NCBI GenBank assembly: GCA_964016885.1
Contig: OZ024745.1
Span: forward strand, 17,732,001-17,796,000
Length of the DNA: 64,000 bases
Direction of reading: 5' to 3'
Source of the DNA: Eledone cirrhosa
Lineage: Eukaryota
Positions 3,170 through 56,645 of the stretch are shown piece after piece. Made by a program: the position numbers and the translations under genes. Numbering within the stretch: the first letter of the stretch is position 1; each line of letters starts with the position of its first letter. The notes below the pieces were generated by a model, which was not told where the DNA came from, made no database searches, and worked only from the letters and a program-made list of their open reading frames with translations.

Positions 3170-3766
3170 TTATCTCCAGCCTGTATAGGTTGGCCACTGG
3201 TGTAAGAGGGAGTTTGTTGCTGCTGCCCTTAGGTTTCCCTCGTATCTTGCTGTGGGCTCATCCGGGATCCTGGATAACAAGGTGTCGGGATGTTTCTTAA
3301 AGACATCCACCTCCACGTCATGCAAGTCTCTCAGATGCCTCGGCAGCCTGTTGAAGAGTTGAGGGCCCTTGAATCCCAGGCTATTGCAATACCTGCTCCG
3401 TATTCTAGATGTGGAAGACGGGACCTTTAGCACCACACAGTGACGTCCTGTTCGACGGTTGGTCCAGCTTCCAATGCCAAATTTTGTTGCTAGTCCCTCC
3501 AGGATTTTCCACATGTAGATCACTGCGTATCTCTCCTGTCTTCGCTCCAAGGAGTAGAGGTTCAGTTCCTTTAGCCTCTCCCAGTAGCTTGTCTCCCTCA
3601 TCTTGGCAATCCTCTTGGTGTAGCTTCGCTGGATTGCCTCAAGCTCCGTGGTTAGTTTGACACTATGGGGTGACCACACCTGGGAGCAGTAGTCCAGGCG
3701 GCTTAGGACAAAAGTCCTCCACAGTGTCAACATGGTGTCTCGATCTCTTGTCCGGAAAGTCCTCAA
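3170..3766 (-). pseudogene. LINE ORF2 C-terminal region
   Basis: SRLDYCSQVWSP and YWERLKELNLYSLERRQERY motifs typical of CR1-group ORF2; separated from the RT by a frameshift and a stop. Confidence 0.88.
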
Positions 3767-3868
3767 GATCTAGCCAGCGAGTCGTCTGCACGTTGTCGCC
3801 ACTTTCATGATGTGTGAAGAAAAAGATGCATCATCGCTCATGTCTATGCCCAGGTCTCGTATCGATTT

Positions 3869-4864
3869 TTACACGGGGATATCGGTCCCTCCTGGTCCTG
3901 TGTAGCTGTGTTCCACTATATTTGTGTTTGCAGGTTTGTATTGTAGGGCTTGGAATTTGCCAGCATTAAACTGCATGTTGTTTTCTTCCGCCCATCTGTA
4001 TATGGCATCCAGATCCTGCTGTAAAAGGGCAGCGTCAGCCGGGTTTTTGATTGCCTGTGCTACCTTAGTGTCATCAGCATAGCTAGTGAGGGATGTTGTT
4101 GCATGCACCACAGAGGGCATGTCCGAGAGAGCCACCAAAAACAGTAGTGGTCCCAGGACTGTCCCCTGGGGCACCCCACTTGTTATCGGTGTTTCCCTCG
4201 AGAGGGCCCCATTTGCTGCGACTGCCTGGCTTCTGTCCCTTAGGAAGCCATGCAGCCACTCACATACTTTTCCAGTTATGCCGAGTCCGTGTAGTTTGTG
4301 ACATATTATTCCGTGGTCGACCTTGTCAAAGGCCTTCGCAAAGTCAAGATATATCACGTCAACATGTGAGCTGTCTAGTAGTTGTCTCAGTACCCAGTCG
4401 CAGTGATGTAGCAGCTGTGTAAGGCAGCTTCTTCCTGGGCGGAAGCCATGTTGCGTGCTAGTCAGGCGGTCATTTTCTTCGAGTAAAGTGATTAGTTTCT
4501 TTCTGACGACTCGCTCCATGACCTTACTGATATGCGACGTCAGGGAGACTGGCCTATAGTTCTTGGCCTCCGCTCTACTACCTCCTTTATGGATAGGACA
4601 TATTGTGCCTTCTTTCAGCTCCCTGGGTAGTACACCGCTAGCCAAGGAGCTTCTGAAGAGCATCTTCAGTGGAGTTGCTAAGGCCCGCTTACATATTTTT
4701 AAGAGAACTGCTGGGAATCCATCAGGTCCAGCAGCCGAGTCTGTTCTAATTTCATCAATGGCGTACACCACATCCTCCTCCGTTATGTCTATGTGGTTGA
4801 TGGTTGCTATTTCTTGATGTAGCGTTGTGACATCAAAGGACTCCTCTGGCTTCGTTATTTGCAT
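3869..4864 (-). pseudogene. LINE reverse transcriptase domain
   Basis: AAGPDG, NYRPVSLTS, QHGFRPGRSC, LDFAKAFDKV, GVPQGTVLGPLLF, YADD. Confidence 0.95.
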
Positions 4865-4913
4865 GTGCCTCAGTGGACATGTGAAGACACTTTTGTACTG
4901 TTCGTTCAGTATT

Positions 4914-6278
4914 TCACATATCTCTTGGGGGGTTTTCGGTTAATGAACCGTCCGTATGGAAGAGTGGCCCAATCTTGCAGTATACTGAGGCAGTTTCTTT
5001 TGCAAATTTAAAGAAGGCCTTAGGGTTTGTTTTAATGTTCTCTATGGCCCTGTTCTCTTTCTTTGCCCTCTCATTCTCATGTGAAAGTTTGAGTGCAATC
5101 TCGGTGTCAAGTAGTGCACGTTTCAAATAGGATTCCTTCTTGTTTTTGTTTTGTTGACTATTCAACTGGTTTGAGAGTTTAGTTCTACGTCTCATAAGGA
5201 TTTTCCTATCTCTGGGAATAAGATTTTTGTGTCTGTTTGCCTCTTTCTCCGGGACAAACTTTTTGCATATGGTGTGTATCGTTGTCATGAAGTGTTGAAA
5301 TTGTGTGTTAGTGTCTTTTGTGGCGGTGTTTTCACTCCATGTTTGCTTCCGGATTTCACTCTTAATCTTTTTCCAGTTAGCCTTGTAGAAGTTAAGGCTG
5401 GATAGTGTCCCGGAGCTTCTTTGTAGTTTTGTCTCTGTTGGTTCTCTTGGACCACATATCATTAGCTCTACTAAGTTATGATCCGAGAGAATTGTTGGTG
5501 TCACCTTTACATTGTGGATGAGCACTTCGTTGTTTGTAAAACAGAGGTCCAGGACACTTTCGCCTCTTGTTAGGAGGAGTATTGCTTGCTCCATGAACAG
5601 CCTGTGTGTGAGGGCCAGCAGGGATTCCGTCTGTCTCTGTTCTATTGACATCATTCCAGGGAGGAGGTGGCCCTCAGGCCATTTGTCCTTTGGTAGGTTG
5701 AAGTCTCCCAGCAGTAGGATGTTGAGACCCTGGTCCAGTTTGTCAAGGATCTCTTCTATCCTACTTAGGCTATCCTCAAATTTAACCTCATGACTGGGGG
5801 CATCGGGCGGCCGATATGTGACACATATTACTGTCTGTAGTTGCTTCATATGTATTATCAGTGTGTCACAGACTGAGTTTGAATGTGTCAACAGTACAAT
5901 TGGAGTGACATCTTCACGGATATACAGAACAACCCCACCATGAGTTCTCTCCATCCTGTCCGAACGAAATACAGTATATTTCGGTATATGTATTTCTGCA
6001 TCTGCTATACTGCTTGTCAGGTGCGTTTCGGTTAGTGCCATGCATAGTGCTTGATTGCTTATGGCTAAGTCTCCCAGGTAGGAAATTTTACTCATGTTAC
6101 TGAGTTTCACCAGGCCTCTGACATTCAGCAGCAGCACTGGTGTGACTTTTGGGGTGCCAGTAATGGCTGTCGGTAAGACACCTGGTCTGGTGTCAGCGGC
6201 GGCCACTCTGGGTCCCTTAACTGTGGTGGTCTCGAGTGCTGGTGTGGATGACCCTGGCTCTGGAGACGATGCAGCCAA
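4914..6278 (-). pseudogene. LINE apurinic-like (APE/EEP) endonuclease domain
   Basis: NVRGL, LTETHL, HGGV, YRPP, GDFN, LDLCF, SDH motifs; frameshift near 4925 before the RT. Confidence 0.93.
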
Positions 6279-6544
6279 GTCAGCTGTCCCACAATCTTCT
6301 CTGCCATCACTAAAAAGTTTTTCTGATCTGCTGCTGCCATCTGTATCTCGTCAGCATGTGCGTGCCTTCTCCTTGTTGGTGCGGCACGCGCGACATCAGC
6401 ATACTTCTGGAGCGGCTTATTTCGGTTGGGGCATGTTGCGCGAGTATGATGGGCATAGTTCGTTTGAGACCTAGGGTGGGCGAATCTGCATCCCATCCCT
6501 GTCTCTCCATGCCAGCATGTCCCGTTCTTGAAAAACTTGCACAT
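6125..6544 (-). pseudogene. LINE ORF1 C-terminal remnant with CCCH zinc finger
   Basis: CKFFKNGTCWHGETGMGCRFAH (C-x7-C-x8-C-x3-H) immediately upstream of and overlapping ORF2. Confidence 0.65.
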
Positions 6545-6850
6545 TACTTGGGGTTTTTTGCTCCCAGTGTCTCGGTGCTTTCTGTTCTTCCTTTGAACAG
6601 TTGTCCACTGGTCCCTCTGCGCTTGTTTCTCATATATTTTTTTTTAAATAGAGGTGTGACACACGAGTTGTGATATATTAGTAAAAAGGAAAAGAAAATG
6701 CTGACAAATTTTTCCCAGTGAAAATAGTAAACTTGGAATAAGTATGAATTAGTATAACGTATTAGTTAGTATTCAGTTTTAGTTTTAAATGTTTACCGGT
6801 TGCACATTTCTTATGCTTTTCAAAATAATTTTGAGATAGAGTGCCCGTGA

Positions 6851-7030
6851 ATAACAGATTAAAGTTTAGGCAAAGAATCGCTGTTTTTCACCCTTAACGG
6901 GATCTTCTGAAGCTAAAAAACAATCTGTGAACGCAGAAATATTTCGAAAAACGCTGCAACCGAAGGAAAACAGGAAGACGATACTTTGGTTCGTGAAGAC
7001 ATTCCCGGGCAGTAAACGAAATATATCTAT
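6851..7030 (-). mobile_element. Family C HHR element fragment (diverged)
   Basis: Matches 27043 onward (ATAACAGATTAAAGTTTA.GCAAAGAATCGCTG...); decayed HHR at 6863-6914. Confidence 0.75.
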
Positions 7031-12078: not shown

Positions 12079-12200
12079 GGAGGTGAGTTTTATTGTAGTA
12101 CAATAAAGCAAGGCAGATATCGGATAAGAAGCACTCTACAATTTGTAGGACTGGAGTATACATAATATATAAGATCAAAAGATGGTTAAAGGAGTTCCAT

Positions 12201-12271
12201 GTATTTTATTATGCGCATTTTAAAAACAAACATCATCATGCAATAATATTTGTGTTTTCATCAGATAAAAC
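12201..12271 (-). ncRNA. Hammerhead ribozyme, inverted pLTR copy (GAAA mutated to AAAA)
   Basis: Reverse complement TTTTAT-CTGATGA-stem II-AAAA-TGCGCA-TA-ATAAAA. Confidence 0.65.
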
Positions 12272-12815
12272 AGGAGGACATGATATGAAGGCTAAAAAAC
12301 ACTTGTGGATAGTGCAGTTTTAAATCAACATATGAGAAGTAGTTTTAGATTGATGTGTGATATTGGGAAAAATATTTTATTTAGAGAGGGGGGGTGGAAA
12401 GGATGAAAAAAAGGGGAGGACATGGGAGTGAAGGTGGAGAGGGAGAGATGGGTGATAGAGAGAAAGAGATAGTTTTTATAACTGAGAAAAGATATATTGT
12501 TTTACATAGAGAGGTTGAAAACCGTTGGAAGATAATGTATAAATTAAAAGAATTTGAAAATTGACGAAGGGAAAAATATGTACGAGGAAGGAGAGGGAGT
12601 TAATATGTATTGAGATTAAAAAGTTTGATGATAGAGAGAATAGAATAATGAATTGCAGATGAATATTCTAACGTCAAAAAAATGTGTGTATGTTTACAAG
12701 TATTATGGAAATTTGAAAATTAACGAAGAGAAAAAATGATTAAGGTTTGTGTATTGAAGGATTTGAGAAAAATAATGTGAAGTTAAGGTTTGTATATTGA
12801 AGGAATTGATAATAT

Positions 12816-14627
12816 GTGCGAAGAACTGAACTACCTGTTAGATTAATCGCCCCCTCTAAATCTGATCTGGGGGTTGTTAGTAAAGCCATCTTGGATAGAA
12901 TTATCCAACAGGTTCGTTCTAATTGCTCTTCTTTGAACCTAAATGTATGGTTTGGTACTTCTGAAGTGATTGGCTGGTTCAATAAATTGGATAATAAAAA
13001 CAAACTAAAATGTATTCAATTTGATTTTGCCAGCTACTATTCCTCCATTTCGCCTTCACTTCTCAATAATGCTCTATCTTTCGCACTTAAATATTCTGAC
13101 ATCACCACAGATGAACTTCACATCATCCTCACCGCACGTAAAACCATCCTAGAGTTCAACAACGAATATTGGACCAGAGCCGATACCTCTAACAACTTCG
13201 ACATCACAATGGGAGCATCCGATTCATCCCAATTGACTGATTTAATTGGTATCTTTATTTTGAACTCTTTGAGTCGGAAAATTCCTCAATTTCGCGGTGG
13301 AATTTATCGTGACGATGGACTCTATACTATCTTAAATTGCAATATAGTTAACCTCAATATTAAGAACAATATACGTAATCTCTTTAACCAACATAACCTA
13401 AAAATTGAATTTGATAACAGTATCAAACTAGCTAATTTCTTGGATGTATCTCTTAATCTTGACACTGGCCTATATTACCCTTACCATAAAAACAATGAGA
13501 ACCTAAATTATGTTAACTTTAAATCTAACCATCCTACCAATATCAAGAATGCTATAGTTAGTAATATTGGAAAAAGAATATCTAACATATCTTCTAATAA
13601 AAACATCTTTGATGCTAACGCCAATTACTATAATAACGCACTTTCTAAAGCCGGCTATCCTGATAAAATCAAATATAGTAAAGAAACAAATTCTAGAAAA
13701 ACTTACAGTAGAATAATTAATCATGATCATTCCAATAACTTTAATAAAAGACCTAGATACAAAAACATAATCTGATATAATGGTCCTTTCTCCATCTCTA
13801 TTAATAACAATATTCCTAAATTATTCTTTAGTGCTTTAAATAAATGCTTCCCTCCCTCACATATCTATAGTAAAATATTTAACAAACACACCATAAAATT
13901 TTCTTATTTTACATCCTCCAATATTTCCAACATTATCTCTAAACACAACAATAAAATACTAAATACTAAATCTCTTCCTTCCAACACTGAATTTCATAAT
14001 AACAGTAATAGTACTCCCGACGTCATTGTAAACCCTAGGCTAATTTCTGTAAACCCAAATACAACGTCAAACACAACTTCGCTAAATGTTCATAATCCAA
14101 CTCTAAATCAAGAAACTATTATTCCCATCGCAAACAACTTCTCCAATCCAATTCCTTCTATAGATAACACTAGGTCACTCATTAATAATCTCTCTAATTG
14201 CAACTGCCCTATTAAAAATAAATGTTCTCTCAACAACCATTGTCTTGATAAAAACTTAATTTATGAATGTAAAGTTATAACTAACACCAATTCCTTCACC
14301 TATTTTGGCTCCACTTCCACCTCTTTTAAAGCTCGTCTCTATAATCATCATTCATCTTTTAAATACAAACTTAAAAGAACCAACACGGCTCTCTCAGAAC
14401 TCATATGGTCCTTGAAAGACAAAAACATTACATATACTATCTTTTGGATGAAGGTTTCTTCTGCGTCTTCATACTTGAACAGCTCTCTATCTAAAATCTG
14501 TAATCTCTGCCTAAATGAAAAATTTACCATTATCTCTAATCTAGATTCTATAATAAATAGACAAACAGATTTGTTTTCTATCTGCTTGCATAAGTTCCAT
14601 AAGACATTTCACAAAGTATACAGCTAA
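12816..14627 (+). pseudogene. PLE reverse transcriptase + GIY-YIG endonuclease (one in-frame stop at 13773-13775)
   Basis: RLIAPSKS, FDITMGASDS, GIYRDDG, NFLDVSLNL, SNHP; after the TGA the same frame continues through CNCPIKNKC..C, LIYEC, YFGST, RLYNH, CNLCLNEK, CLH. Confidence 0.92.
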
Positions 14628-15440
14628 TATTCAATTCTTTATCAATTTAGAGTCTATTCTCAAAGGCACATATACATACACCTCTTTTAAAATATACCCA
14701 TCTTCCTACCTTACTTCAAAGGGTATTATACACTCTATAATACTTGTTTACTCATTACCCTTACTCTATCTTCACCTTATAAAATCCTTCGTAACATATA
14801 CATTTGTTTTGACGCCAGATTATTCATCCTTAATTTATTATTTTTTTCTCCCCATCATCTAACTCATTCTTAATACATATTAACTCTTCCTTCGCACATA
14901 TTATCAATTCCTTCAATATACAAACCTTAATTTCACATTATTTTTCTCAAATCCTTCAATACACAAACCTTAATCATTTTTTCTCTTCGTTAATTTTCAA
15001 ATTTCCATAATACTTGTAAACATACACACATTTTTTTGACGTTAGAATATTCATCCGCAATTCATTATTCTATTCTCTCTATCATCAAACTTTTTAATCT
15101 CAATGCATATTAACTCCCTCTCCTTCTTCGTACATATTTTTCCCTTCGTCAATTTTCAAATTCTTTTAATTTATACATTATCTTCCAACGGTTTTCAACC
15201 ACTCTATGTAAAACAATATATCTTTTCTCAGTTATAAAAACTATCTCTTTCTCTCTATCACCCATCTCTCCCTCTCCACCTTCACTCTCATCTCCTCCCC
15301 CTTTTTTCATCCTTTCCACCCCCCTCTCTAAATAAAATATTTTTCCCAATATCACACATCAATCTAAAACTACTTCTCATATGTTGATTTAAAACTGCAC
15401 TATCCACAAGTGTTTTTTAGCCTTCATATCATGTCCTCCT

Positions 15441-15510
15441 GTTTTATCTGATGAAAACACAAATATTATTGCATGATGATGTTTGTTTTTGAAATGCGCA
15501 TAAAAAAATA
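15441..15510 (+). ncRNA. Type I hammerhead ribozyme in PLE pLTR
   Basis: TTTTAT-CTGATGA-AAACACAAATATTAT..ATGATGTTTGTTTTT-GAAA-TGCGCA(palindrome)-TA-AAAAAA. Confidence 0.8.
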
Positions 15511-15538
15511 CATGGAACTCCTTTAACCATCTTTTGAT

Positions 15539-15613
<75 letters not shown>

Positions 15614-22035: not shown

Positions 22036-22044
22036 TTCTTATAT

Positions 22045-22830
22045 ATATATTTATTAAAATAACAGATTAAAGTTTAAGCAAAGAATCGCTGCTTTCACCC
22101 TTAACGGGATCTTCTTAAACTAACAAAGTCAATCTGTAAATGCAGAACTGGATATTTCCATAAACGTTGCAACCGGAGGAAGACAGGAAAACGATACTTT
22201 GGTTCGTGGAAACTTTCGGTGGCTAAGAACGGGAAAAAACGAATATAATACGTCATTAATAGGAGCGGTGTAAAAAGATTACGCGCAAAGACAGAACCAC
22301 GTGTATGGTATAAAAGAGGTCGTAGACTAATGTTCTCTTAGGTGGTGCATAGAGACGTTCTCTGGCAATGAACGAAAAAAACGAAGATAGTACGTCATAT
22401 GTGGTGCGTGGAGAACAATAGCACGCAAAGACAAAACCACGTAAATGGTATAGCAGAAGTCGTAGACTAAATTCTAACTAGGAGACCGAATGAATCTCGC
22501 TACAGAGTTAAGAACAAAGTAAATAAATACAATACAGAAGTATAGAAATAAATAAATACATACACGCAAACAAATACGTACATACACAAGCATACGCAAA
22601 AACTTACCATAGGTAAACAAAACCACGCACATATAAATATGTGTGTGTGTGTAAGCGTGTATACGTCTCCGAACATTCGTGTATTTACATGTAGGTATGT
22701 GTGTGCGCTTGTTATATACGTATTTATTTATTTATATACGTTTATATAATTATTTATTTATTTGTATACACGCTTACACACACACACATATTTATATGTG
22801 CGTGGTTTTGTTTACCTATGGTAAGTTTTG
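22045..22830 (-). mobile_element. Family C HHR element with internal inversion
   Basis: 22045-22660 colinear with 27035-27650; 22665-22830 is the reverse complement of ~27585-27750; HHR at 22071-22121 with core mutated to AAGAAGA. Confidence 0.8.
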
Positions 22831-24017: not shown

Positions 24018-24145
<128 letters not shown>

Positions 24146-24165
24146 TTATTAAAATAACAGATTAA

Positions 24166-24216
24166 AGTTTAAGCAAAGAATCGCTGCTTTCACCCTTAAC
24201 GGGATCTTCTGTAACT
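24166..24216 (-). ncRNA. Family C hammerhead ribozyme (CAGAAGA core)
   Basis: Reverse complement AGTTA-CAGAAGA-TCCC/GTTAA/GGGT-GAAA-GCA..TGC-TT-AAACT. Confidence 0.65.
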
Positions 24217-24310
24217 CAAATAAATATTTGCTCTACGGTTCTTATATATTTGATATATATTTTTCCTTATCGAGCCCTCTTTGGATTTTAGTCTTCAAAT
24301 TTATTATTAT

Positions 24311-24362
<52 letters not shown>

Positions 24363-24412
24363 CGTAAAATAAGAAAATTTTTAAAAAACTAACTTACTTA
24401 CTTAAATTTTCA

Positions 24413-24492
24413 CTCCAACTAATTAGTTTCTGCAATGGGATAAAGACAGTTATGTAATGAACTGTTGAGAATTTCATTGCGTCATCAGGGAG
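24413..24492 (-). ncRNA. Family A hammerhead ribozyme
   Basis: Reverse complement of the 25610-25689 motif. Confidence 0.8.
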
Positions 24493-24964
24493 ATCTATTC
24501 TCAGCCAAGTCTCCAGGCAATGCGCGGACACTGGGGACTCATATAAAAATAATAATAATTCGGTAAATGGAACAGCTATCGAGGACTGGGTTCCAGGCAC
24601 TGAAAATTCTCACTGCCACTGGTCATATGGCCGATTCTAAAGAATCAATCACGTGACACAGAGGCTAGTCAGTAGGAATGGGATGGTAAAATGACAGACG
24701 CCTACTAAAACCCCCAAAAAATTTAGAAGTGGTTTTAGCAGGTTTGCTCGACAAGTCAGTGATTTGGAGATAAATATAGATAATTTAATATATCTACTAA
24801 CATAAGCGCACAGATGTACGCTAATGCCAGCAAATACACAGGTTATGTCATAGTACCTAGGTGGTTCAATGCAGGAGGATGCAGAACAATAATATAAAAG
24901 ACGTAAAATAAGAAAATAAAAAAAAAAAATTAAAAAGAAATTAACTTACTTACTTAAACTTTCA

Positions 24965-25044
24965 CTCCAACTAATTAGTTTCTGCAATGGGATAAAGACA
25001 GTTACGTAATGAACTGTTGAGAATTTCATTGCGTCATCAGGGAG
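24965..25044 (-). ncRNA. Family A hammerhead ribozyme
   Basis: Reverse complement of the 25610-25689 motif. Confidence 0.8.
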
Positions 25045-25609
25045 ATCTATTCTCAACCAAGTCTCCAGGCAATGCGCGGACACTGGGGACTCATATAAAA
25101 ATAATAATAATTCGGTAAATGGAACAGCTATCGAGGACTGGGTTCCAGGCACTGAAAATTCTCACTGCCACTGGTCATATGGCCGATTCTAAAGAATCAA
25201 TCACGTGACACAGAGGCTAGTCAGTAGGAATGGGATGGTAAGATGACAGACGCCTACTAACACGCCTAAAAAATTTAGAAGTGGTTTTGGCAGGTTTGCT
25301 CGACAAATCAGTGATTTGGAGATAAATATAGATAATTTAATATATTTACTAACATAAGCGCACAGATGTACGCTAATGCCAGCAAATACACAGGTTATGT
25401 CATAGTACCTAGGTGGTTCAATGCAGGAGGATGCAGAACAATAATATAAAAGACGTAAAATAAGAAAAATTTAAAATGACCAGTGGCAGTGAGAATTTTC
25501 AGTGCCTGGAACCCAGTCCTCGATAGCTGTTCCATTTACCGAATTATTATTATTTTTATATGAGTCCCCAGTATCCGCGCATTGCCTGGAGACTTGGCTG
25601 AGAATAGAT

Positions 25610-25689
25610 CTCCCTGATGACGCAATGAAATTCTCAACAGTTCATTACGTAACTGTCTTTATCCCATTGCAGAAACTAATTAGTTGGAG
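25610..25689 (+). ncRNA. Family A hammerhead ribozyme (type I, large loop II)
   Basis: CTCC-CTGATGA-C-GCAATG..(37 nt)..CATTGC-A-GAAA-CTAATTAG-TT-GGAG. Confidence 0.82.
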
Positions 25690-26161
25690 TGAAAGTTTAA
25701 GTAAGTAAGTTAATTGTTTTTTTATTTTTTTTTTTTATTTTCTTATTTTACGTCTTTTATATTATTGTTCTGCATCCTCCTGCATTGAACCACCTAGGTA
25801 CTATGACATAACCTGTGTATTTGCTGGCATTAGCGTACATCTGTGCGCTTATGTTAGTAGATATTTTAAATTATCTATATTTATCTCCAAATCACTGATT
25901 TGTCGAGCAAACCTGCCAAAACCACTTCTAAATTTTTTGGGGGTGTTAGTAGGCGTCTGTCATCTTACCATCCCATTCCTACTGACTAGCCTCTGTGTCA
26001 CGTGATTGATTCTTTAGAATCGGCCATATGACCAGTGGCAGTGAGAATTTTCAGTGCCTGGAACCCAGTCCTCGATAGCTGTACCATTTACCGAATTATT
26101 ATTATTTTAATATGAGTCCCCAGTGTCCGCGCATTGCCTGGAGACTTGGCTAAGAATAGAT

Positions 26162-26241
26162 CTCCCTGATGACGCAATGAAATTCTCAACAGTTCATTAC
26201 GTAACTGTCTTTATCCCATTGCAGAAACTAATTAGTTGGAG
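26162..26241 (+). ncRNA. Family A hammerhead ribozyme
   Basis: Same motif, 552 bp downstream. Confidence 0.82.
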
Positions 26242-26709
26242 TGAAAGTTTAAGTAAGTTAATTTTTTTTTTATTTTTTTTTTAAATTTTCTTATTTTACG
26301 TCTTTTATATTATTGTTCTGCAACCTCCTGCATTGAACCACCTAGGTACTATGACATAACCTGTGTATTTGCTGGCATTAGCGTACATCTGTGCGCTTAT
26401 GTTAGTAGATATATTAAATTATCTATATTTATCTCCAAATCACTGACTTGTCGAGCAAACCTGCCAAAACCACTTCTAAATTGTTTGGGGGTGTTAGTAG
26501 GCGTCTGTCATCTTACCATCCCATTCCTACTGACTAGCCTCTGTGTCACGTGATTGATTCTTTAGAATCGGCCATATGACCAGTGGCAGTGAGAATTTTC
26601 AGTGCCTGGAACCCAGTCCTCGATAGCTGTTCCATTTACCGAATTATTATTATTTTTATATGAGTCCCCAGTGTCTGCGCATTGCCTGGAGACTTGGCTG
26701 AGAATAGAT

Positions 26710-26789
26710 CTCCCTGATGACGCAATGAAATTCTCAACAGTTCATTACGTAACTGTCTTTATCCCATTGCAGAAACTAATTAGTTGGAG
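26710..26789 (+). ncRNA. Family A hammerhead ribozyme
   Basis: Same motif, 548 bp downstream. Confidence 0.82.
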
Positions 26790-26996
26790 TGAAAATTTAA
26801 GTAAGTAAGTTATTTTTTTTTTTATTTTTTTTTTAAATTTTCTTATTTTACGTCTTTTATATTATTGTTCTGCATCCTCCTGCATTGAACCACCTAGGTA
26901 CTATGACATAACCTGTGTATTTGCTGGCATTAGCGTACATATGTGCGCTTATGTTAGTAGATATATTAAATTATCTATATATATATATATATATAT

Positions 26997-27034
<38 letters not shown>

Positions 27035-27036
<2 letters not shown>

Positions 27037-28010
27037 TTATTAAAATAACAGATTAAAGTTTAAGCAAAGAATCGCTGCTTTCACCCTTAACGGGATCTTC
27101 TGAAACTAACAAAGTCAATCCGTAAACGCAGAACTGGATATTTCAAAAAACGTTGCAACCGGAGGAAGACAGGAAGACGATACTTTGGTTCGTGGTAACG
27201 TTCGCTGGCAAAGAACGGGTAAAAATGAATAATACGTCATTAATAAGAGCGGTGAAAAACAATTACGCGCAAAGACAAAACCACGTTTATGGTATAAAAG
27301 AGTTCTTAGACTAATGTTCTCTTAAGTGGTACATAGAGACGTTCTCTGGCAATGAACGAAAAAACGACGATAATAAGTCATATTTGGAACGTGGAGAACA
27401 ATAGCACGCAAAGACAAAACCACGTAAATGGTATAGCAGAAATCGTAGAGTAAAATTCTAACTAGGAGACCAAATGAATCTCCGCTACAGAGTTAAGAAC
27501 AAAGTAAATAAATACAATACAGAAGTAATAGAAACAAATAAATACATACACGCAAACAGATACGTACATACACAAGCATACGCAAAACCTTACCATGGGT
27601 ATACAAAACCACGCACATATAAATATGTGTGTGTGTGTATGCTTGTGTACAATTAAATAAATAATTATATAAACGTATATAAGTAAATAAATACGTATAT
27701 AACAAGCGCACACGCATACCTACATATAAATACACGAATGTTCGGAGACGTAAGTCAACTAAAACAAGAAGTACACATATACACACACCCACCATACGTA
27801 CGAACCTGCACACTGACGCGGACGCAAAACTCCCGTATACACATAACCAAACCCTAAATACCAGGATATGTAAAAATTATACGCTATAACAGTCAAATAT
27901 ACGTACGAGAAGGTATACATACCTTCACAAAACATACAGGTAATATATACTTACCTATGCAAATAAGTAAAGGAATAAACAAAACATATACTTAGCTCCC
28001 ACATCAAGAC
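27035..28010 (-). mobile_element. Family C HHR element, longest copy in the window
   Basis: Shared terminus ATTTATTAAAATAACAGATTAAAG at (TA)n; homologous to 22045-22830; right boundary approximate. Confidence 0.75.
27057..27107 (-). ncRNA. Family C hammerhead ribozyme (CAGAAGA core)
   Basis: Reverse complement AGTTT-CAGAAGA-T-CCC/GTTAA/GGG-T-GAAA-GCA/GCGATTCTT/TGC-TT-AAACT; all three stems pair. Confidence 0.72.
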
Positions 28011-28156: not shown

Positions 28157-29030
28157 GGTTTTCATTCTTTCTAACATCGGATTCACTAGCGAAAGGTCTG
28201 TTTTCTGACTCGCTCATATATTCACACAGCTTATGCTGAAAGAATAACTATGTTGCTTGTGTTTATTTCCATCTTCGGTTAGCTTCCCCCCTGTGTTGTT
28301 TACTTGTCTCACTCGCTTTACGCGTTTCTATTGTCCTAATAACTTATTTTAGTTATTATCGCTCCAACGTGAGGTATATGATTTTTAATGCGATGAAATA
28401 CCCATGATCGTTTGGTATATCACTGATGAGGGACTCATTTTATAACATGTTATCCATGTGAAACCACCAGTTTTCTTCTCACCCATATTTTCATATATTT
28501 ACCCAAACTGCAATTCTCTGTTTCTCTCTTTCTCTCTTACTGCTCCCTCGTTCTCTCTGTTTCTCTTACTTTCTTTCGTCCCCTCTGCCATGTCAGTTAA
28601 CTCTTTCTCTCTACTGACCTCTTCCTCGCACTCCCACTCACTCAGTCCCTGTTTCTCCCCTTCTTTCTTCCTCCCGTTCGCTGGGAAAACGGTTTTCATT
28701 CTTTCTAACACCGGATTCACTAGCGAAAGGTCTGTTTTCTGACTCTCTCATATATTCACACAGCTTATGCTGAAAGAATAACTATGTTGCTTGTGTTTAT
28801 TTCCATCTTCGGTTAGCTTCCCCCTGTGTTGTTTACTTGTCTCACTCGCTTTACGCATTTCTATTGTCCTAATAACTTATTTTAGTTATTATCGCTCCAA
28901 CGTGAGGTATATGATGTTTAATGCGATGAAATACCCATGATCGTTTGGTAAATCACTGATGAGGGACTCATTTTATAACATGTTACCCATGTGCAGCCAG
29001 CAGTTTTCTTCTCACCCATATTTTCATATA
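28157..29030 (+). repeat. Partial tandem duplication, 534-bp period (~1.6 units), ending in (TA)n
   Basis: GGTTTTCATTCTTTCTAACA..GGATTCACTAGCG at 28157 and 28691. Confidence 0.85.
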
Positions 29031-31952
29031 TACATATATATATATATACATATATATATGCATTTGTGTGCGAGCAGGTATGGGTGTCCGTGTGCTTATA
29101 TATGAGGGTTAAAAGGAATCTAAATGAAATTCTTTAGTTGATTGACGAACTGGAATATTATTTTCCTGAAATAATAATCATTACAGTTTACCGAATCTAT
29201 TTCAAATTTTCTATTCAAAGATGGTAAACATTTACCTCTACATGAATGCACACTAATAATTAATAAAACAAAAATATTAATCGATATTATTCGTGCTTCT
29301 CAGTTAATTACAATGAAGCTGTAGTGAAAATATAGCCACAAATATATACCATTTATCAATTAACCACTACTACAGAAATTGAAGCAAATATCAAAATCAC
29401 TGATTTCTTAAAACCACAGTTAAATGAAACACATCGAATTTTACTGTATCCCTAAATCAATGGTTATCAAACTGCGAGCTGTGTTGTGATCCTATTATAT
29501 TAGAGGGACTTAATTGATTATTCACTATAGTTAATTATCACGGGGGGCTCAGGAAATTGTGAGCAAGTGGAAAGACAAATATTTCTCTCACAAATTACTC
29601 TCAACAAACCTTAATTCTTTGAAATTCAAAGTATCTAGAATGACACATGCAATTCCCAAATTTCAATTCAAAATTAATTAAACTTTAAAAAAAAAACATG
29701 TGATACTATTTCTAAAACGAATATAAAATTATTCATCATGTTTCTTATACAAATGCATGTATCCAATTATATTACATTTTGCTGAACTAAACGCAAGCAA
29801 TTATTACTTACTTTTGTTTTAATTCTTTGATTTTCATTCGTGCTTTGATTTAATCAATTTGTCACATGTGCTGAGGGGGAAATATTCGTAATTGAAAAGA
29901 GTTTCATGTAAGATATAACAAATATTCAATAACTTACAAATTGATGTTGTATTTTCTTCAAATACTTTCTGTACATACACGTTACATAAAAAAAACAATA
30001 AAATAATTGCATTTTCAATAATCAGTTTAAAGGATGTTCAATGAATATAAGAAAAATTCCAATTTAATGCAATTAAATCTAAAATCATAAATAATTTCAA
30101 ATATCTTGAAAAATATATTAAAATCTAATGCTGAATTGTATTAAGCAGGAATCGGATAATATTTTACGAGATTCTTTCAGTCGACTGTAGCTATATTGTG
30201 ACACTTTCCTTACATATACATTGGATTATATCGTCAACGTCCGTTATCGAACAGCTCCTATTTGTATCGATCGTATGATGAACGGAAAATAAACCTAGGT
30301 GTCATTTAAATTTAGTATGTAAAGAAGTATACACAAATACTGATTTATCGTTTCTATCACGGGTATTTTACAGATTAAAACATTTATATTTGGAAACATT
30401 TGTGTATGCTTCAGCTATCACAATTTTCGAGAAGATTTGTGGATTCACAAAACAGAAATTAACTGTTAGAAATAAAGGCGCATTTATTATATCAATTTCT
30501 TAAGTTGTTATTTTCTGAAATGTTGACAGGTTTTTGTGCAATAATGAGCTTCAGAATACTTGCAAATATACTTATGAGTGAAGTAAATATGTATATTTGT
30601 ACAAACCTAGATAAAACTACTAAAATTGTACGCCATATAAACCTGCATGCAGAAAAACAGTCATTATTAATTGGTGATTCAATGTGAATAGGTTTTCTTA
30701 ATTATATAATATTAAACGCACCATTGGTTCAACGGCAATAGCAGTACTATCTTCTAAGATGGAATATGCCTGACCGAATTTGATGACGTTTGTAAATTTC
30801 ATATATCTATTTATATGTTAACGTATGCATATCAGGCGATTTCTATTATACATACAAATTTCTAAAGCATCGATTCTTGTTAATAATGTTTCGATAGAGG
30901 GAAACCATTGCGCTTCGTCCTGAACACATTTGAGGATGCTCTATATAATTAATTATAGTTGATTGTAAAAAGACTCAGAACATTTATGACTATGATTTCA
31001 CCACTGATTCGATTCATTACTGATGGAATAAAATTATATTCTTTGATTATTTGACAGCCAACATATCATAAACAATATTAAATATTGAATGATATTTCTT
31101 CAGCAAAATCAGAAAGCGTAAATTAGATTCTAGATTTAAGATTGCATACTCGTCTCGATCCATTAAATTTATTTAACAACCACTAATGTATATACTGCTT
31201 CAAATTAACGTTCATTATGGCGAGTATTAATTCAATACTAAACATTTATGTGGCATACATATTAATAAATGTTTCGAAATGATTTACCACTTTACCACTC
31301 AGTAAGGTGAAATTAGATTTCTGCAAATGTACCTTCCAAACCCTTATTAGTCATATTGGGGACACTGCAGTCCGCTTCAGAGAGTAAAATTAATTGAAAT
31401 GGTCTTACTGATAAACTGAAATATTTAATGGGAGATTATAAATATGATAAAAGAAGGAGTGACGAGCGCATATATCGGGGCTACATTGATACACAGATTC
31501 CTTCATATGAGTAGAAGACAGACCAGATTAGGAGCATTCTAGATTCATTTAATGATGTGGTAATAATAAAATGCGTTTTTTGGCACTGTACCAAATACTG
31601 TAGCTAAAGTGCTATTTACTTCCTTTTAAGTTAACTATTGAAGCCTCACATGTTTCCCATAGCAGAAGACCTATCTCGTCATTTATAACGCTATTATAGC
31701 TATAATGTATGACCGCAATGTAGAATACGTAGATGGCATTACCTATAAATAGTACGAGTATGCCCTAAATATAGATAGCGGAATGAGAACAATCTGGCTT
31801 CACGCGTTCAATAAGTGTTCGATTTCGAAAATCCGAGAAGTTTGCTGAATATGACAAACATTTAAAGCAGACAATTAACTACCACAACTAAACTGATATT
31901 ACCGTAGCAATCGGGAAAATGATCTTAGTTCGAATATATGCATGTATAATAA

Positions 31953-33471: not shown

Positions 33472-35605
33472 TGGCTGCCAACTCGTTTTCGAGTACGGCC
33501 ACTACTTTATATCTATGTAGGAGAACCCCTACCGATGGGCTGAACAAGTGTGACATTTTAGTCCACCCAGGGACTTGAAAACTCTGGTACAAACACTACA
33601 CTTGTGACAATTATTGACTCATAGTGCTGGGCCCATGGTACCATGTGACGACAAGTGCAGAGAGATCTCCAGATATAAAACAATGCCTGTGCCATGAAGC
33701 TTTTATAGGGAGCAAAGGCACTGCACAAAGCCAGTGCCACTCTCTTAACCAAGATAATATTTACCAAAAAGAACAAGTCAACATCATTGGATACCATCAG
33801 GGTTGCTGGTGCTATATCAGAGTTTTCCTTCTCCTATAATTCTGCCTTGACAAAGGCTAAGGGGTCATCTCTCCCGGTGATTTTGGATGGCCATTGATTC
33901 TTAAGAGCTCCTTTGAATCTATACGTGTATCTATGTGAGCATATATGTATATGTGTGTGTGTGCGAATATGGGAATATATATGCACGTGTTATACATACT
34001 CTTACACCTCATTATAAGAATTTATTGTTGCAAAATAATGTGGCATGGTTTGAAATGGGTTTAAATGAAGAAATAAATTCCACATGGCGATCTATTGGAA
34101 GGTCGCAGTATTTAGTCTTTAATACCACATTTACTCTTTCTCCTGTTTCGAATTGCTATTGTATGAATTTATTCGACGGTAATTTCTATATTATAGCATC
34201 ATGGAGACTAGTTCAGACTTATCTTAGACACTGATATTATTATATTCCACAATAGAGATTAAATAAAATCACAAAATGAGATAGAATGAATGAAATTCAT
34301 TTTTATATACTTTGTTAGTGGGAATATATTTCCGATTTTTAGGCAAACGTAAAAGTAAGATCATGTATAAAAGAGTTGTAATCTCGCGTTTTACCGAAAT
34401 CTTATAAATGTTTATTGTTAGTTCTATAAAAAATGAAACTTCGATTTATTTCGATTGTCTATCTAAAATGTATAAAATGTGTTAGTAGACACGGCATGAA
34501 CAAATGATTAAGAGGTTCGATTTGCTATCATTAAGTCCACTGCTTGGTACATTAGGAAATTATCATTGAACATACCCCACGTTCGATCCATTCCTTGTGA
34601 TTGAAACTTTGTAGACAGAAACTATTTCGAAGCCCAAAGGCGAGACAGTACCTCCAGGCCAGAATTCTCATGGTCTGCTTTCATTGAGATGTTATGACGA
34701 AAACTAAATGGGATTAATATATATCAATATTTTTATTTGTACATGATATGCGTAGAGATTAGAGATGGAAGGCTAATGTGAAATGATAGAATCCAGAATC
34801 ATCATAGAGTCTTTCGGAAGATATGGCTTGCGGTCTTTAATTCGTGCTTAGTTTTAATCCTGCCTTGGTGATCTATCATACTTAGCCCATTATCCGATTT
34901 ACCGCCAATGGATAATTGATGGATTCCTCTGTTGCAAAAATTTCAGATCCTGCAGTTACCCCTTTCTCCTGATATGAAGATAGAAAAACACTGACATATA
35001 AACGGAGGCAACAAATGAAGAAATCTCCCCACCAAACATTGCTTTAAATTCCTGCATGGAAATAAGTACGAGACTCTCAACATATAAACCTATTGGCGTA
35101 GAAACAAGTATATTATATGCTATGAAAACAACCATCATTCCAATAACAAGGATTATTCGGAATAATATTGATAGGCCTAAAATATTGATGTTATGCAACC
35201 ATACTCAAGTTTGCAACATAACTAGTTAAACTATGCATATCACTTAGATATACAAGAAAAATTATACACAGTTTTATTCATTAGTTGAAGTCACCATATA
35301 TGCACTATTGAATCTCAATATTATACACAACTATAATACCAAAAAAGAATACGAACTAACTTAAATCGACACGTGTTTTATACAATCATATTCCAATAAT
35401 TGTATATACACTACACAAAATGTAAGAGAAGACAATAAATCAAACATTAGAATAAAAAATGCATGCGAAAATTAGAAAATGCCATATGTTTCAATAACAG
35501 ATAGCCATATGTGAAGTTTCCAAACAAAAAAAAAACTCTATTTTTATATTTTCATATCATTCAAGCATTGTGGTTATTCATACTAACCTTATTCTTATCA
35601 TTAAG

Positions 35606-36195
35606 TGTTTCTACTTTTGGCACAAGGCCAGCAATTATTCCAGTGTATTACTGGCTTTTTATTTTATCGACCCCGTAGGGGTGAAAAGCAAACTTAACCT
35701 CGGCGGGAATTGAACTCAGAATGGCAAGGGCCGTAACTCTATGCGTCAAAGCATGGCGTCTGACCCTCTACCGATACTGCAAATCCACCGCTGATAATAA
35801 TAATAATTGTTTCTACTTTTGGCACAAGGCCAGCAATTATCCCAGTGTATTACTGGTACTTTATTTTATCGACCCCGTAAAGATGAAAGGCAAAGTTAAC
35901 CTCGGCGGGATTTGAACTCAGAATGGAAAGGGCCGTAACTCTATGCGTCAAAGCATGGCGTCTGACCCTCTACCGATACTGCAAATCCACCGCTGATAAT
36001 AATAATAATTGTTTCTACTTTTGGCACAAGGCCAGCAATTATCCCAGTGTATTACTGGTACTTTATTTTATCGACCCCGTAAGGATGAAAGGCAAAGTTA
36101 ACCTCGGCGGGATTTGAAATCAGAATGGAAAGGGCCGTAACTCTATGCGTCAAAGCATGGCGTCTGACCCTCTACCGATACTGCCATCCACCGCC
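35606..36195 (-). mobile_element. Head-to-tail trimer of OK-like SINE (202-bp period)
   Basis: Three consecutive copies; a single TATCATTAA duplication flanks the whole array (35596-35604 and 36196-36204). Confidence 0.9.
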
Positions 36196-46859: not shown

Positions 46860-48662
46860 AAACTGGGTGTCGGCGTGTCCGGTGGCTGTGAGGGAGCCTC
46901 TCATGCAATCAGGCAGTTCTTCAGCAGCTGCCCATCAGTACCGGTATCCAGGGACTCCAGGCACCTGATTGTCAAGCTTGACATGAGGAATGCCTTTAGC
47001 TCTTTACGTCGGGATCATCTGCTCGAGGCCTGCCTCAACCGAGCCCCCTCTTCCTACCCGCTGGCCTACCTGTCATATGGAGCCCCGAGCATGCTCTTAG
47101 CTGCTGATACGGTCATACAGGGCGACCCTTTGGTACCCCTCCTGTTCGCTCTTGGTATTGACCACATCGCCCGGAGTATCACGGCCCCTCTCAACGTTTG
47201 ATATCTGGATGATGCTACGTTGGGCGGGCCCTTACGGACGGTCTGCCAAGACCTTCAATCGGTGATTCCTGCCATGGCGGGAATCGGCCTCCACGTCAAC
47301 TCGGCCAAGTCGGAGGTGGTGAACGTCAGCCTCGATGCAGTGAGCTTTGCAGCACCCGTCTTGGACGCGCGGTCCATTCTCCGCCAGGTTCAGGTGACCC
47401 GCAAAGAGGATGTCCACATCCTCGGGTCACCGATCCACCCGCCGGCCATCCGCTCCACCATCAGGTCCAGGCTTGAACAGCTGCAGACTCTCACGAGCCG
47501 ACTGGGCTTGATTGACGGCCACCCAGCTCTCTTTCTGCTGAGGAACTGCTTCGCCATGCCGAAGCCCCTCTATACACTCCGCAGCGCTCCATGCTACACC
47601 CAGACATCTCTCCTCGCTGACCTCGATACTTGTATCCGAGCAGCAGCCGAGGGGATATGCAACGACAAGTTTAACGATATAGGGTGGCAACAGGCCACTT
47701 TACCGGTCAGGTATGGCGGCCTAGGCCTCCGGTCCCCGATCTCACTAGCTTTGCCGGCGTATCTTTCGTCGGTAACCTCGTTCCGCATCCTCGTCAGCAG
47801 GGTTCTTCAAAACACAACAGAACCCTCTGTGTTCAGAGAACGTGAAGCCGCCTGTGAGACGTGGTACCGGCTGGGACTTGGCCCATTAGACGTCCCTCAT
47901 CCTTCTCCCTATGTTGACGTCAAGTCCCACCAACGCACTTGGGATGACCTCCAGTGCAGCCTGGCCTCAGGCAGGCTCACGCGCCAGTTCGACCAGCACC
48001 GCCTTGCTTGCTTTCGTGCGGCCTCCAAACCCCACAGTAGTGCCTGGCTCCATGCTCTGCCCACCTTCTCCACTGGTACGCAGTTAGACAACCATAGCCT
48101 GCGAATCGGCGTTTCCCTGAGGCTCGGCCTTCGGATCTGCCAGCCACACCAATGTCGCTGCGGTTCCACCGTGGACTCTTTCGGCATCCACACGCTTTCC
48201 TGTCGACACAGTGCCGGCCGCATTCCACGCCATACTGCCCTCTACGATGTCATTAAGCATGGCTTGGACGCTGCAGGCTTCCCTTCCCTGCTCGAGCCGG
48301 TGGGGCTTTATCGAGGGGATGGCAAAAGACCAGATGGCATGACCATCTTCCCGTTCCGCGGTGGAAATCCCCTCGTCTGGGATGCCACTTGCACCGAACT
48401 TTCTGCAGCCGCAACCTGGTGCAGTCTGCGACTGACACAGTTTCTGCTGCACATCGGGCTGAGGGGGCCAAACTCTTCAAATACCGGTCGCTCTCCGACA
48501 GGTTTGCGGTCGTTCCCCTGGCAGTGGAAACTTCTGTTGTCCTCGGCCCAGGGCTACCTCCTTACTCACCACTATAGGCGCTGAGCTTTTCCAGCGCGTC
48601 TCCCTTGCCGTCTTCCGGGGAAACGCCTTCTCCATTCTGTCCGCCGGTGCAGTGGATGGGCC
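46860..48662 (+). mobile_element. CRE-like non-LTR retrotransposon fragment (RT + restriction-like endonuclease), decayed
   Basis: LGVGVSGGCE, KLDMRNAF, QGDPLVPLLF, (W>stop)YLDD, LPVRYGGLGLR, CRC..H..SC zinc knuckle, RH, KRPDG, WDAT; sharp GC-rich block. Confidence 0.9.
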
Positions 48663-49116: not shown

Positions 49117-49187
49117 CGTGTGTGTACGTGTGTGTGTATAATCATATGCAAGATAATATGTATATATTATATATATATATAGAAATA

Positions 49188-49908
49188 TATTTATTAAAAT
49201 AACAGATTAAAGTTTAAGCAAAGAATTGCTGCTTTCACTCTTAACGTGATCTTCTGAAACTCAGTTTCGTACTAAGTAAGTGCCGTCATAAGAGTGAGAA
49301 ATGAAATTTCGTTTCATTCTATTCCATTTATTGTTTTCGGTGTGCCCGGCCGACTGAACTCACTCGATATGCAAATTAGGCTGCTCAGCCGTTAATATGC
49401 ATAAGGAAAGTATATACTTTCAGACGTTCAACCATCTGGCAGGACGGCATACGATGCTGGCGATAGCTCATAAGCTTGAAACTAGTACATCGTTCCTGTG
49501 TCAGTGTTGAACAAAAAGGTGACGTGGTTGCCTAAACACTGTACGGCGTCATTCGGGCTGTTTGTTTGTTTACATATACGTTCATACATATATATATGCA
49601 GGTATCGGTTTACCGAACATTTATTATAAAGCTCGGTTTGTTTGTTTACAAAAAAACAAACCGGTGACGTGGTTTATTTGTTTACAAAAAAAAACAAACC
49701 GGTGACGTGGTTTATTTTTTTACAAAAAAATAAAAAGGTGACGTGGTTGCCTAAACACTGTACGGCGTAATTCGGGCTGTTTGTTTGTTTACATATATGT
49801 TCATACATATATATATGCACGTATCGGTTTACAAAAAAACGGCTAGTTCTGGTCTCCAGAAATAGCCGTCGAAACGGCTTGACCTCTGCTGTCGGGGTCA
49901 TACTTTTT

Positions 49909-50609: not shown

Positions 50610-50692
<83 letters not shown>

Positions 50693-50694
50693 TA

Positions 50695-52436: not shown

Positions 52437-52480
<44 letters not shown>

Positions 52481-52483
<3 letters not shown>

Positions 52484-53438
52484 AATTAATATATCTACCG
52501 ACATATGTATACAGATGCATACCTACGCTAACAGATATATATGTTTTGTCTTAGTAACTTTGTAGTTCTATGACTTAATAGCAGCCCCAGTCCAAGCTGG
52601 TTAACCTCAGTGTCACGTGATTAATTCTTTTGAATTTGCCACTTGACCAAGGAGGCAGCGAATTGTTCAGTGCTTAGAATCTAGCCCCGCTCGATTTTTT
52701 CGATTTTTTCCATCCACTGAATTATTGTTATATAAGCTTCCAGTGTCCTCTCATTGCCTGGTGGCTTAGCTGAGAATAGACTCCCTGATGACGTAAGGCT
52801 TCTCTACAGGTATTACATAACTGCATTTATCCCCTTACAGAAATTAATTAGTTGGAGTGAAATTTTAGTAAGTAAGTCAATTTTCATAACTTTCTTATTT
52901 ACGTCTTTCATATAATTGTTCTGCATTCCCCTGCATAGAACTACAAAGTTACTAAGACAAAACATATATATCTGCTAGCGTAGGTATGCATCTGTATACA
53001 TATGTCGGTAGATATATTAATTCTTTATATACTACTCCAAATTATTTGTTGAGCAAAATTTGCCAAATTACTACTGTAAATGATAGTAGTAGCTAGCCTC
53101 TGTCTTAATAGCACCCCCACTCCAAGCTGGTTAACATCAGTGTCACGTGATTAATTCTTTTGAATTTACCACTTGACCAAGGAGGCAGCGAATTTTCAGT
53201 CAGTGCTTAGAATCTAGCCCCGCTCGATTTTTTCGCTTTTTTCCATCCACTGAATTATTGTTATATAAGCTTCCAGTGTCCTCTCATTGCCTGGTGGCTT
53301 AGCTGAGAATAGTCTCCCTGATGACGTAAGGCTTCTCTACAGGTATTACATAACTGTATTTATCCCCTTACAGAAACTAATTAGTTGGAGTCAAATTTTA
53401 GTAAGTAAGTCAATTTTCATAACTTTCTTATTTACGTC

Positions 53439-53443
<5 letters not shown>
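52481..53443. mobile_element. Family A retrozyme-like array, diverged variant 3 (533-bp period)
   Basis: Inverted arm 52481-52571, then ~1.6 plus-strand units; HHRs at 52781-52857 and 53314-53390. Confidence 0.88.
53314..53390 (+). ncRNA. Family A variant 3 hammerhead ribozyme
   Basis: CTCC-CTGATGA-C-GTAAGG..CCTTAC-A-GAAA-CTAATTAG-TT-GGAG. Confidence 0.83.
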
Positions 53444-53488
<45 letters not shown>

Positions 53489-56590: not shown

Positions 56591-56645
56591 GTTCTTAATT
56601 TGCGGTATGTCAAATCTATTTATCTATAAAACTGTTTATATTGTA

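Follow-up and report, generated by a model that had tools for sequence, protein, structure and literature searches.

Introduction

Metazoan non-long terminal repeat (non-LTR) retrozymes are non-coding, low-GC elements found in thousands of copies as tandem units, each with one type I hammerhead ribozyme (Cervera and de la Pena 2020, PMC7229834; reviewed in PMC7761336; Li et al. 2026, bioRxiv 10.64898/2026.07.22.740005; here and below, we draw on parts of the papers cited). In coral, mussel and axolotl, related retrozymes give rise to abundant circular RNAs (PMC7229834, PMC7761336). Retrozymes have been proposed to spread when such circles are reverse-transcribed into tandem multimeric cDNA, with Penelope-like elements (PLEs) as candidate helpers; in those papers the step from circle to multimer is a hypothesis that is not shown (PMC7229834, PMC7761336). 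A PLE origin of retrozymes has been argued from their distribution and from terminal-repeat trees (bioRxiv 10.64898/2026.07.22.740005). Here we describe an inverted array of a retrozyme-like unit in a 64,000-nt stretch of the Eledone cirrhosa genome (GCA_964016885.1, contig OZ024745.1, positions 17,732,001 to 17,796,000 of the forward strand; "the window", whose numbering is used throughout). We conclude that the array is probably an insertion of a non-LTR retrozyme family, made by a PLE enzyme that extended both DNA ends of a broken (TA)n run from two fixed sites on one circular monomer RNA.

PLE insertions commonly include an inverted, 5'-truncated copy. They also have a 30-40-bp tail, which in many cases occurs on just one of the two ends, and (TA)n serves as the target of several clades, among them Hydra, Naiad and Neptune (PMC8557442, PMC3846280). 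The one-end tail is therefore already known, in words. The purified enzyme of one PLE, PAc (Poseidon), cuts and extends both strands in vitro, starts at two internal RNA sites that bound the tail and is predicted to act as a dimer (Frangieh et al. 2024, PMC11167929).

The family described here resembles metazoan non-LTR retrozymes in its type I hammerhead per unit, its head-to-tail tandem units (dimers to large multimers), its lack of coding sequence and its GC content of 37% (below 50%). The retrozyme papers, in the parts used here, make no mention of a tail, of inverted arms or of start sites that are fixed, whereas our family has all three. The 552-nt unit exceeds the ~170-400 nt given in PMC7229834 and falls inside the 51-972 bp of Li et al., so that an earlier note on this DNA, made from the sequence alone, was right to call the unit longer than described with respect to the first source but not the second. 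Judged by its sequence, the element appears to be a variant of the non-LTR retrozymes, and one that supplies evidence at the genome level for the proposed mobilization route. Our literature search, with subscription papers and supplements outside its scope, found no inverted multimeric retrozyme insertions, no strict rule of one end of each kind, and no allele evidence for a monomer template.

With endonuclease-positive (EN+) PLEs, especially the Hydra clade, the family shares a head-to-head inverted 5'-truncated copy, a tail at one end, a (TA)n target, a hammerhead in the repeat and partial tandems (PMC8557442, PMC3846280). Unlike them, its unit has no open reading frame (ORF), and because the entire element is the repeat, both arms can be multimers. 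Its tail of ~118 nt compares with 30-40 nt in EN+ PLEs and ~90 nt in a PLE that resides in the same window. With PAc it probably has in common that both strands are cut and extended from two internal start sites bounding the tail. According to the PAc study, in the parts used here, the two strands did not differ in start site, the start lacked homology and hammerhead cleavage was not required (PMC11167929); the present family, in contrast, uses one site of each kind per insertion, has TATAT microhomology at both starts and has a template delimited like a hammerhead-cut monomer.

The array in the window

Positions 24353-26980 consist of two head-to-head arms of the 552-nt unit with a (TA)n run at either side. 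The left arm (24353-25476, minus strand) is ~1,124 nt or 2.04 units long, with its outer (3') end at unit position 77 (site A) and its inner end near 53. The right arm (25476-26980, plus strand) is ~1,505 nt or 2.73 units long, contains units of 552 and 548 nt, and runs from an inner end at 343 to an outer (3') end at ~195 (site B; 199 in the BLAST mapping). The arms are 96-98% identical and have 1 nt in common at their junction (25476), which is not a symmetric fold-back. TATAT microhomology joins both outer ends to (TA)n, that is, to the (TA)22 run at the insertion target on the left (24314-24357) and to the run on the right (26961-27033). Unit position 1 is 25686, the first base after the predicted cut, and the full monomer from predicted cut to predicted cut (25686-26237, plus strand, 552 nt) is our reference; its predicted fold is more stable than those of shuffled sequences (z -3.4). 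The repeat maps contain no LTR-like structure; a primer-binding site and a polypurine tract were not searched for.

Each of the five units carries a hammerhead core, at 25040 and 24488 on the minus strand and at 25614, 26166 and 26714 on the plus strand. The only ATG-initiated ORF of at least 40 aa is a 46-aa frame spanning the junction, and the unit is non-coding. The earlier note had claimed a non-coding monomer with one hammerhead per unit, arms of ~2.0 and ~2.7 units and a predicted GUU cut after 25685; our measurements agree on each count. It overlooked that the two ends are fixed and complementary.

A second insertion of the same family (50690-52409) is 88% alike and has a 0.84-unit arm ending at B and a 2.28-unit arm ending at A. 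Positions 52475-53447 hold a diverged subfamily (~71%) with a short inverted arm and compensatory changes in stem II of the hammerhead. The flanks of the array (24140-24313, 22040-22830, 27026-27752, 6850-7011, 49185-49261) are themselves repeats that end at TA runs. A shared 70-nt start lies on either side of the array, and the left flank is found again beside the insertion at G000:C2:59.30 Mb. These insertions thus nest within one another's TA runs.

A genomic family with two fixed ends

A 29-nt hammerhead core had 4,189 exact matches in the genome assembly (G000) and its reversed control had none, so the family is not a product of chance. We mapped arms at 150 places (37 best matches to the unit, 59 consecutive ones on contig C1, 52 that came from searching with a multimer and with a second pattern, and the 2 in the window), and later at 41 more. 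Since every sample required at least one exact or strong match, the samples lean towards longer, younger copies. Two contigs from a second organism (run X5, one study) carry the unit at 95-99% identity and in unit order, aligned to window 25250-25700.

Outer arm ends clustered at either site A (position 77) or site B (~195), and TATAT microhomology to the target was present at each of the two. Among 107 head-to-head insertions, 85 were classifiable (22 were excluded before counting because an end lay off both sites or at the edge of the locus), and 84 of them had one A end and one B end (P ~2e-24 against an even split). The sole exception combined an A end with an A-like end lacking a TA run; two B ends were never found together. 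The rule also held for insertions fetched after it had been noticed, namely 31/31 in the third set of the 107 and all 20 classifiable cases among 27 more (7 excluded on the same grounds). Overall, 104 of 105 classifiable insertions, from 134 inverted ones, had one end of each kind. A TA or TC run was present at both outer ends in 80 of the 84 A/B pairs; (TA)n is the target, and its runs mask any target-site duplication.

Both arms were longer than one unit in 18/107 insertions (6/39 of the C1 sample) and in 6/27 of the later ones, which makes the array in the window a large but ordinary member of the family. A tiny inverted stub of the opposite end type was retained at 7 of 44 single arms. Two rejected candidates concern the arms. 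B arms that seemed to halt at their own start after whole turns made up 6/56 of the first sets and 0/35 of the next, and the pattern was dropped. Two loci with a plus arm followed within 60 nt by a minus arm (L043, L053) proved to be adjoining insertions of different subfamilies in a common TA run.

In L1 twin priming, two target ends prime on one RNA, which leaves non-overlapping head-to-head arms joined by microhomology. The present family has similar head-to-head arms, most of whose junctions show 0-4 nt of overlap or a short insert. Unlike in twin priming, the arms overlap: in only 4/84 and 1/84 A/B pairs does an arm's inner end fall close to where the other arm starts, and arm B passes site A in 73/84, which means that the same stretch of RNA was copied twice.

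Alleles of the two arms

Substitution counts exclude unit positions 14-64 (a variable U/A tract) and arm edges, and allele counts exclude copies under 80-84% identity. Distance to the nearest other insertion was biased by short copies, and we used shuffles as the control in its place. At polymorphic columns, the two arms of an insertion mismatched in 22/1256 and 8/434 comparisons (1.8%), against 15.5% and 40.6% when partners were shuffled within subfamily groups. Both arms therefore carry a single haplotype.

We then considered rare or private alleles at columns covered by at least three turns (158 insertions). All turns carried such an allele in 146 cases (106 spanning both arms and 40 at columns within one arm), a subset of turns did so in 32 cases (L006 alone giving 12), and a single turn in 266. 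Allele 379C of the array in the window is found in 5/5 covering turns (26064, 25512 and 26612 on the plus strand; 24590 and 25142 on the minus strand). The rest of the assembly lacks 379C; the other allele has 154 matches. Likewise, 466C (8/8 turns) and 351G (3/3 turns) each occur genome-wide only in the two arms of one insertion. As a side observation on the same 158 insertions, all-turn alleles are richer in T>C and A>G changes (20/58) than single-turn alleles (44/280; P 0.002, some cases being counted twice); we take RNA editing, or selection that preserves structure, as no more than a lead.

One pair of insertions links a parental unit to its descendant. The array at G000:C2:59.30 Mb carries 133C and 396A in one turn only, whereas the one at G000:C4:303.90 Mb carries both in every covering turn, 133C in both arms. 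Genome-wide, 133C has 5 matches, 396A has 6 and the ancestral state has 29. We take the C2 locus as the parent because it is more decayed, so the direction is a deduction. The three full turns of the daughter are identical to one another and differ by 2 letters from that parental turn and by 8-11 from the parent's other full turns; one unit is repeated. The daughter's inner partial turn fits the same parental turn, not the upstream neighbor expected from a linear transcript. A second candidate pair (L331-332 to L320) was rejected as a local duplication. Four hits depended on one unstable run boundary. Because private alleles fill both arms and the daughter repeats a single parental unit, it is likely that a monomer was read repeatedly as the template.

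The predicted hammerhead and passage of its cut site

The predicted type I hammerhead at 25610-25689 (plus strand, GUU cut after 25685) has a 4-bp stem I, the core, a 6-bp stem II with a long loop and a 3-bp stem III with a palindromic loop. The right arm has two more, at 26162-26241 (cut after 26237) and 26710-26789 (cut after 26785), and the left arm has predicted counterparts on the minus strand at 24965-25044 and 24413-24492. Rfam models gave no match to the motif at the gathering score and no relevant one at E<=5, and the free fold of the 101-nt motif region was not better than shuffles. In a covariation test of stems I and II, pairing was kept in 121/125 cells with 8 double changes, as in none of 500 shuffles, and one stem II position showed four pair types. 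The test used 10 variants hand-picked across subfamilies, and since these sequences are related the shuffle count is not a probability. As Rfam finds none, the hammerhead call stands on motif and covariation.

Arms of the inverted set cross the predicted cut ~250 times, and 289 of 292 passages retain their length, that is, the cut is passed without a scar. Inner ends within 4 nt of the cut numbered 5/214, with ~1.9 expected; an apparent pile-up of 10 such ends shrank to these 5 once overhangs were mapped. With so many length-keeping passages and so few stops, a ligated circle is the simplest account.

A co-resident Penelope-like element and its hairpins

Like a PLE insertion, the array family combines a (TA)n target with an inverted 5'-truncated head-to-head copy and a tail confined to one end. 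Since one arm ends at A and the other at B, it carries the PLE tail signature. The unit itself lacks the ORF for a reverse transcriptase plus GIY-YIG endonuclease of an autonomous PLE. PLE protein matches lie near 31/151 loci; none was established as part of the element.

The window also contains a 5'-truncated protein-coding PLE with an inverted arm and a tail at one end only (53483-56758, minus strand), a candidate kind of helper. Its family is young and includes many open frames of 745 aa. This candidate helper, for which we used L199 and window 55046-56623, has DKT, RWK-like (RWR), CxCX5C, CxxC and CxH motifs and a C-terminal endonuclease in the 745-aa frame, together with (TA)n and a hammerhead. 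The element is likely a member of the Hydra clade, judging from motifs read by eye against section 11 of PMC8557442 rather than from a tree. A Pfam search gave no matches.

The co-resident PLE has two ends of its own, at 720 and 806 in L199. We examined 30 PLE loci, with the short end as the anchor. Wherever the partner end was visible (14 cases), it was the long end (in 2 of the 14, the partner lay 400-860 nt from the mapped anchor arm), and none of the 30 had a second short end; this PLE therefore obeys the same end rule. Its arms can overlap too. The array unit and the PLE terminal repeat have in common only a U-rich tract and a 16-letter hairpin motif.

Two small hairpins are predicted 4 nt 3' of the start sites, each with a 2-nt bulge on its 3' side. 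One, beside site A (25767-25790, plus strand, one per unit, fold z -1.0), is a candidate positioning element; the other lies beside site B (25885-25907, plus strand). Between A and B, the ~118-nt tail contains a predicted long stable hairpin (25817-25864, plus strand, z -5.3). The site-B hairpin and the hairpin beside the short end of the PLE have 8+8 letters in common (~5e-8, a rough composition estimate made after the match was noticed). Compared with shuffles, the small hairpins gain little stability (z -1.0 to -2.0). Another PLE-like ORF in the window (12813-14627, one stop) is flanked by 668-nt inverted repeats (12157-15556), and one end of that locus has an extra ~80 nt holding a similar hairpin motif.

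How the insertion may form

We regard PLE-driven insertion from two primers as very likely. The earlier note had proposed two primers from a (TA)n break, and this idea gains from the one-of-each ends (104/105), from the same rule in the co-resident PLE and from the in vitro precedent of another PLE for two-strand cutting and two start sites (PMC11167929). Its alternative templates, circular or long multimeric RNA, fared differently: allele evidence at the level of the family speaks for the re-reading of a monomer and favors the circle, and long multimeric RNA is less favored. A covalent circle, with one molecule shared by both primers, is probable, at somewhat lower confidence than re-reading as such. 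For the array in the window alone, a circle with later conversion and a short homogeneous multimer fit equally well; the case for the circle rests on the family. The overlap of the arms, which the note had used as an argument for a circle, is insufficient; it does not diagnose one, because a protein-coding PLE shows it as well.

In the mechanism we envisage, transcripts would be cut at successive hammerheads and the monomers ligated into a circle. A PLE reverse transcriptase-endonuclease would cut a (TA)n run, and a dimeric complex would bind beside the two bulged hairpins, with one site for each DNA end. Each polymerase could displace its own and its partner's cDNA for up to several turns, and the two cDNA ends would then be joined by 0-4 nt of microhomology or a short insert. 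Later, some copies would add units by DNA-level duplication, and a few would reach satellites of more than 100 units. A bolder version, which we give even chances, is that one PLE dimer loads onto each circular RNA and its two polymerases roll together, one per DNA end and start site; that private alleles in both arms are changes of that RNA; that the bulged hairpins are a loading signal shared with Hydra elements; and that priming at two sites, not fold-back, explains inverted one-tailed PLEs generally.

Several results weigh against priming on a circular monomer. By the usual rules for hammerheads, the C-A mismatch at the base of stem II and the GUU cleavage triplet may make cleavage slow. 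Of the eight fixed alleles that we looked for across the genome, five (10G, 116T, 124A, 375G, 312A) proved to be lineage-wide or recurrent rather than unique. Clean parent-daughter pairs number one among 199 insertions scanned. A third carrier of 396A (G000:C10:39.65 Mb) lacks 133C, which fits a circle that predates 133C or a linear read-through. The array in the window has 10G in 3/5 turns and 214C in 2/4; because these subsets are in register across the arms, they fit a multimeric template or later conversion. Turns are closer in the U/A tract within arms (6.3 edits) than between them (7.9), which could come from two templates, DNA duplication or strand-biased assembly error. Duplication after insertion is plain in a 15-turn arm at G000:C4:68.37 Mb and in L006 and L331-332. 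When the unit was compared by BLAST with 30 PLE loci and a PLE of the window, the U-rich tract was the sole match, and no helper with extended homology emerged. Lastly, uncut RNA was the main PLE substrate in vitro (PMC11167929).

Two side observations belong with these variants. We had considered whether 10G is a modified base read differently from turn to turn, and rejected this: its 27 matches are spread over five places that represent several lineages, and the pattern at C4 is repeated in blocks, so that one mutation followed by duplication suffices. At unit positions 14-64 and 250-258, boundaries of T/A and T/G runs shift between turns at many loci while total length stays constant, even where the remaining sequence is identical; this could be slippage in each reverse-transcription pass, DNA-level change or assembly error.

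Alternative explanations

The alternative that survives best, though we consider it unlikely, is that two primers extended on a long linear RNA that was read through a genomic array and left uncut, with arm length capped by the source array. Long arrays do exist: one of ~155 units at G000:C2:312.58 Mb (312577955-312666754), whose head-to-head junction is still visible, and one of more than 100 units at G000:C12:24.46 Mb (24461532 to beyond 24525000). The in vitro preference for uncut RNA, the in-register 10G and 214C and the C10 carrier of 396A are all compatible with such a template. However, neighboring units differ by 1.9% and 2.9% in the long arrays (0.15% in the 15-turn arm) compared with 1.2% for dispersed turns, and for only 2 of 196 long dispersed turns is the nearest array unit as close as the nearest other dispersed turn. 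Dispersed copies almost lack the array-internal alleles, although the C12 array was read in part and other arrays may exist; as masters, the long arrays are unsupported for the parts read. The daughter at C4:303.90 Mb lacks the variants of the units neighboring its parental turn. Variants specific to a unit are not passed on together from one insertion to another (1 pair, against 0.52 expected), and there is no memory of register in the U/A tract (8.00 vs 7.92 edits, n=30), in-register turns being no more alike than out-of-register ones.

It is doubtful that the template was instead a cut linear monomer, either with the enzyme jumping from its 5' end back to a 3' end or with a separate monomer from the same source unit for each primer. 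Such templates would explain the monomer bottleneck equally well, and the 5 inner ends near the cut and the arm-specific alleles of a few insertions (L013, L016, L071) agree with them. Jumping reverse transcriptases usually add or lose letters, which counts against a jump given that almost all passages keep their length. Separate monomers from many transcribed loci should often differ in haplotype, whereas the mismatch between arms is at background. Related retrozymes, moreover, accumulate mostly as circles (PMC7229834).

More improbable still is a short insertion inverted by fold-back self-priming, as proposed for PLE palindromes (PMC3846280), whose arms grew later through stepwise DNA duplication. 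Its two parts can each be seen: junctions are symmetric within 2 nt in 9/107 insertions, and duplication is present in the loci named above, in the satellites, and in the 15-turn C4 arm (68366180-68374691), which retains proper A and B ends and a visible head-to-head junction. But 98/107 junctions are asymmetric, fold-back leaves unexplained why the second end is always the other site, and unit duplication requires an arm that already exceeds one unit. Within-arm distance (1.37%) is not below between-arm distance (1.16%; n=47), a comparison suggested in the earlier note, so stepwise growth is not the rule; most variants of the array in the window are confined to a single turn. DNA-level duplication, which that note had named as the contrary outcome and which Li et al. 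also offer as local amplification from a PLE terminal repeat, does occur, but it is limited to a minority of copies. As a general route, fold-back with stepwise duplication is largely refuted.

An assembly or chimeric-read artefact is scarcely credible: no contig from four sequencing runs spans the junction (these are short contigs of other samples and uninformative), but the arms differ by ~1.5% and end at two distinct fixed sites, and the pattern recurs in nearly all classifiable insertions, with private alleles at each locus.

Other repeats in the window

An unrelated family of the same build occupies 57353-58676, with a 310-bp unit, an inverted arm of ~1.8 units and a direct arm of 2.5 units; its arms are nearly identical and end in (TA)n, and each unit has a hammerhead-like core. 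A 533-bp tandem pair at 28157-29031, with hammerhead-like cores at 28423 and 28956 and a TA run at its end, is likely another retrozyme family. Broken LINE-like frames at 3170-6643 (minus strand) and 47202-48584 (plus strand), endonuclease- and reverse-transcriptase-like by eye, are unrelated to the array. A dispersed repeat of ~190 bp forms 2.9 tandem copies at 35602-36194 and has other copies at 8524, 17623, 31946 and 57005.

Implications

The family touches on which enzyme moves animal retrozymes, on whether the circle is copied and on how PLEs form inverted one-tailed insertions. It offers thousands of natural records of single events, a strict start-site rule and a traceable parental unit, and it shows how a retro-inserted multimer can grow into a satellite of more than 100 units. 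With the candidate loading hairpin that it shares with a young open-frame PLE family of this genome, it supplies a defined RNA, enzyme and target for reconstitution. The finding renders the mobilization route proposed for retrozymes directly testable.

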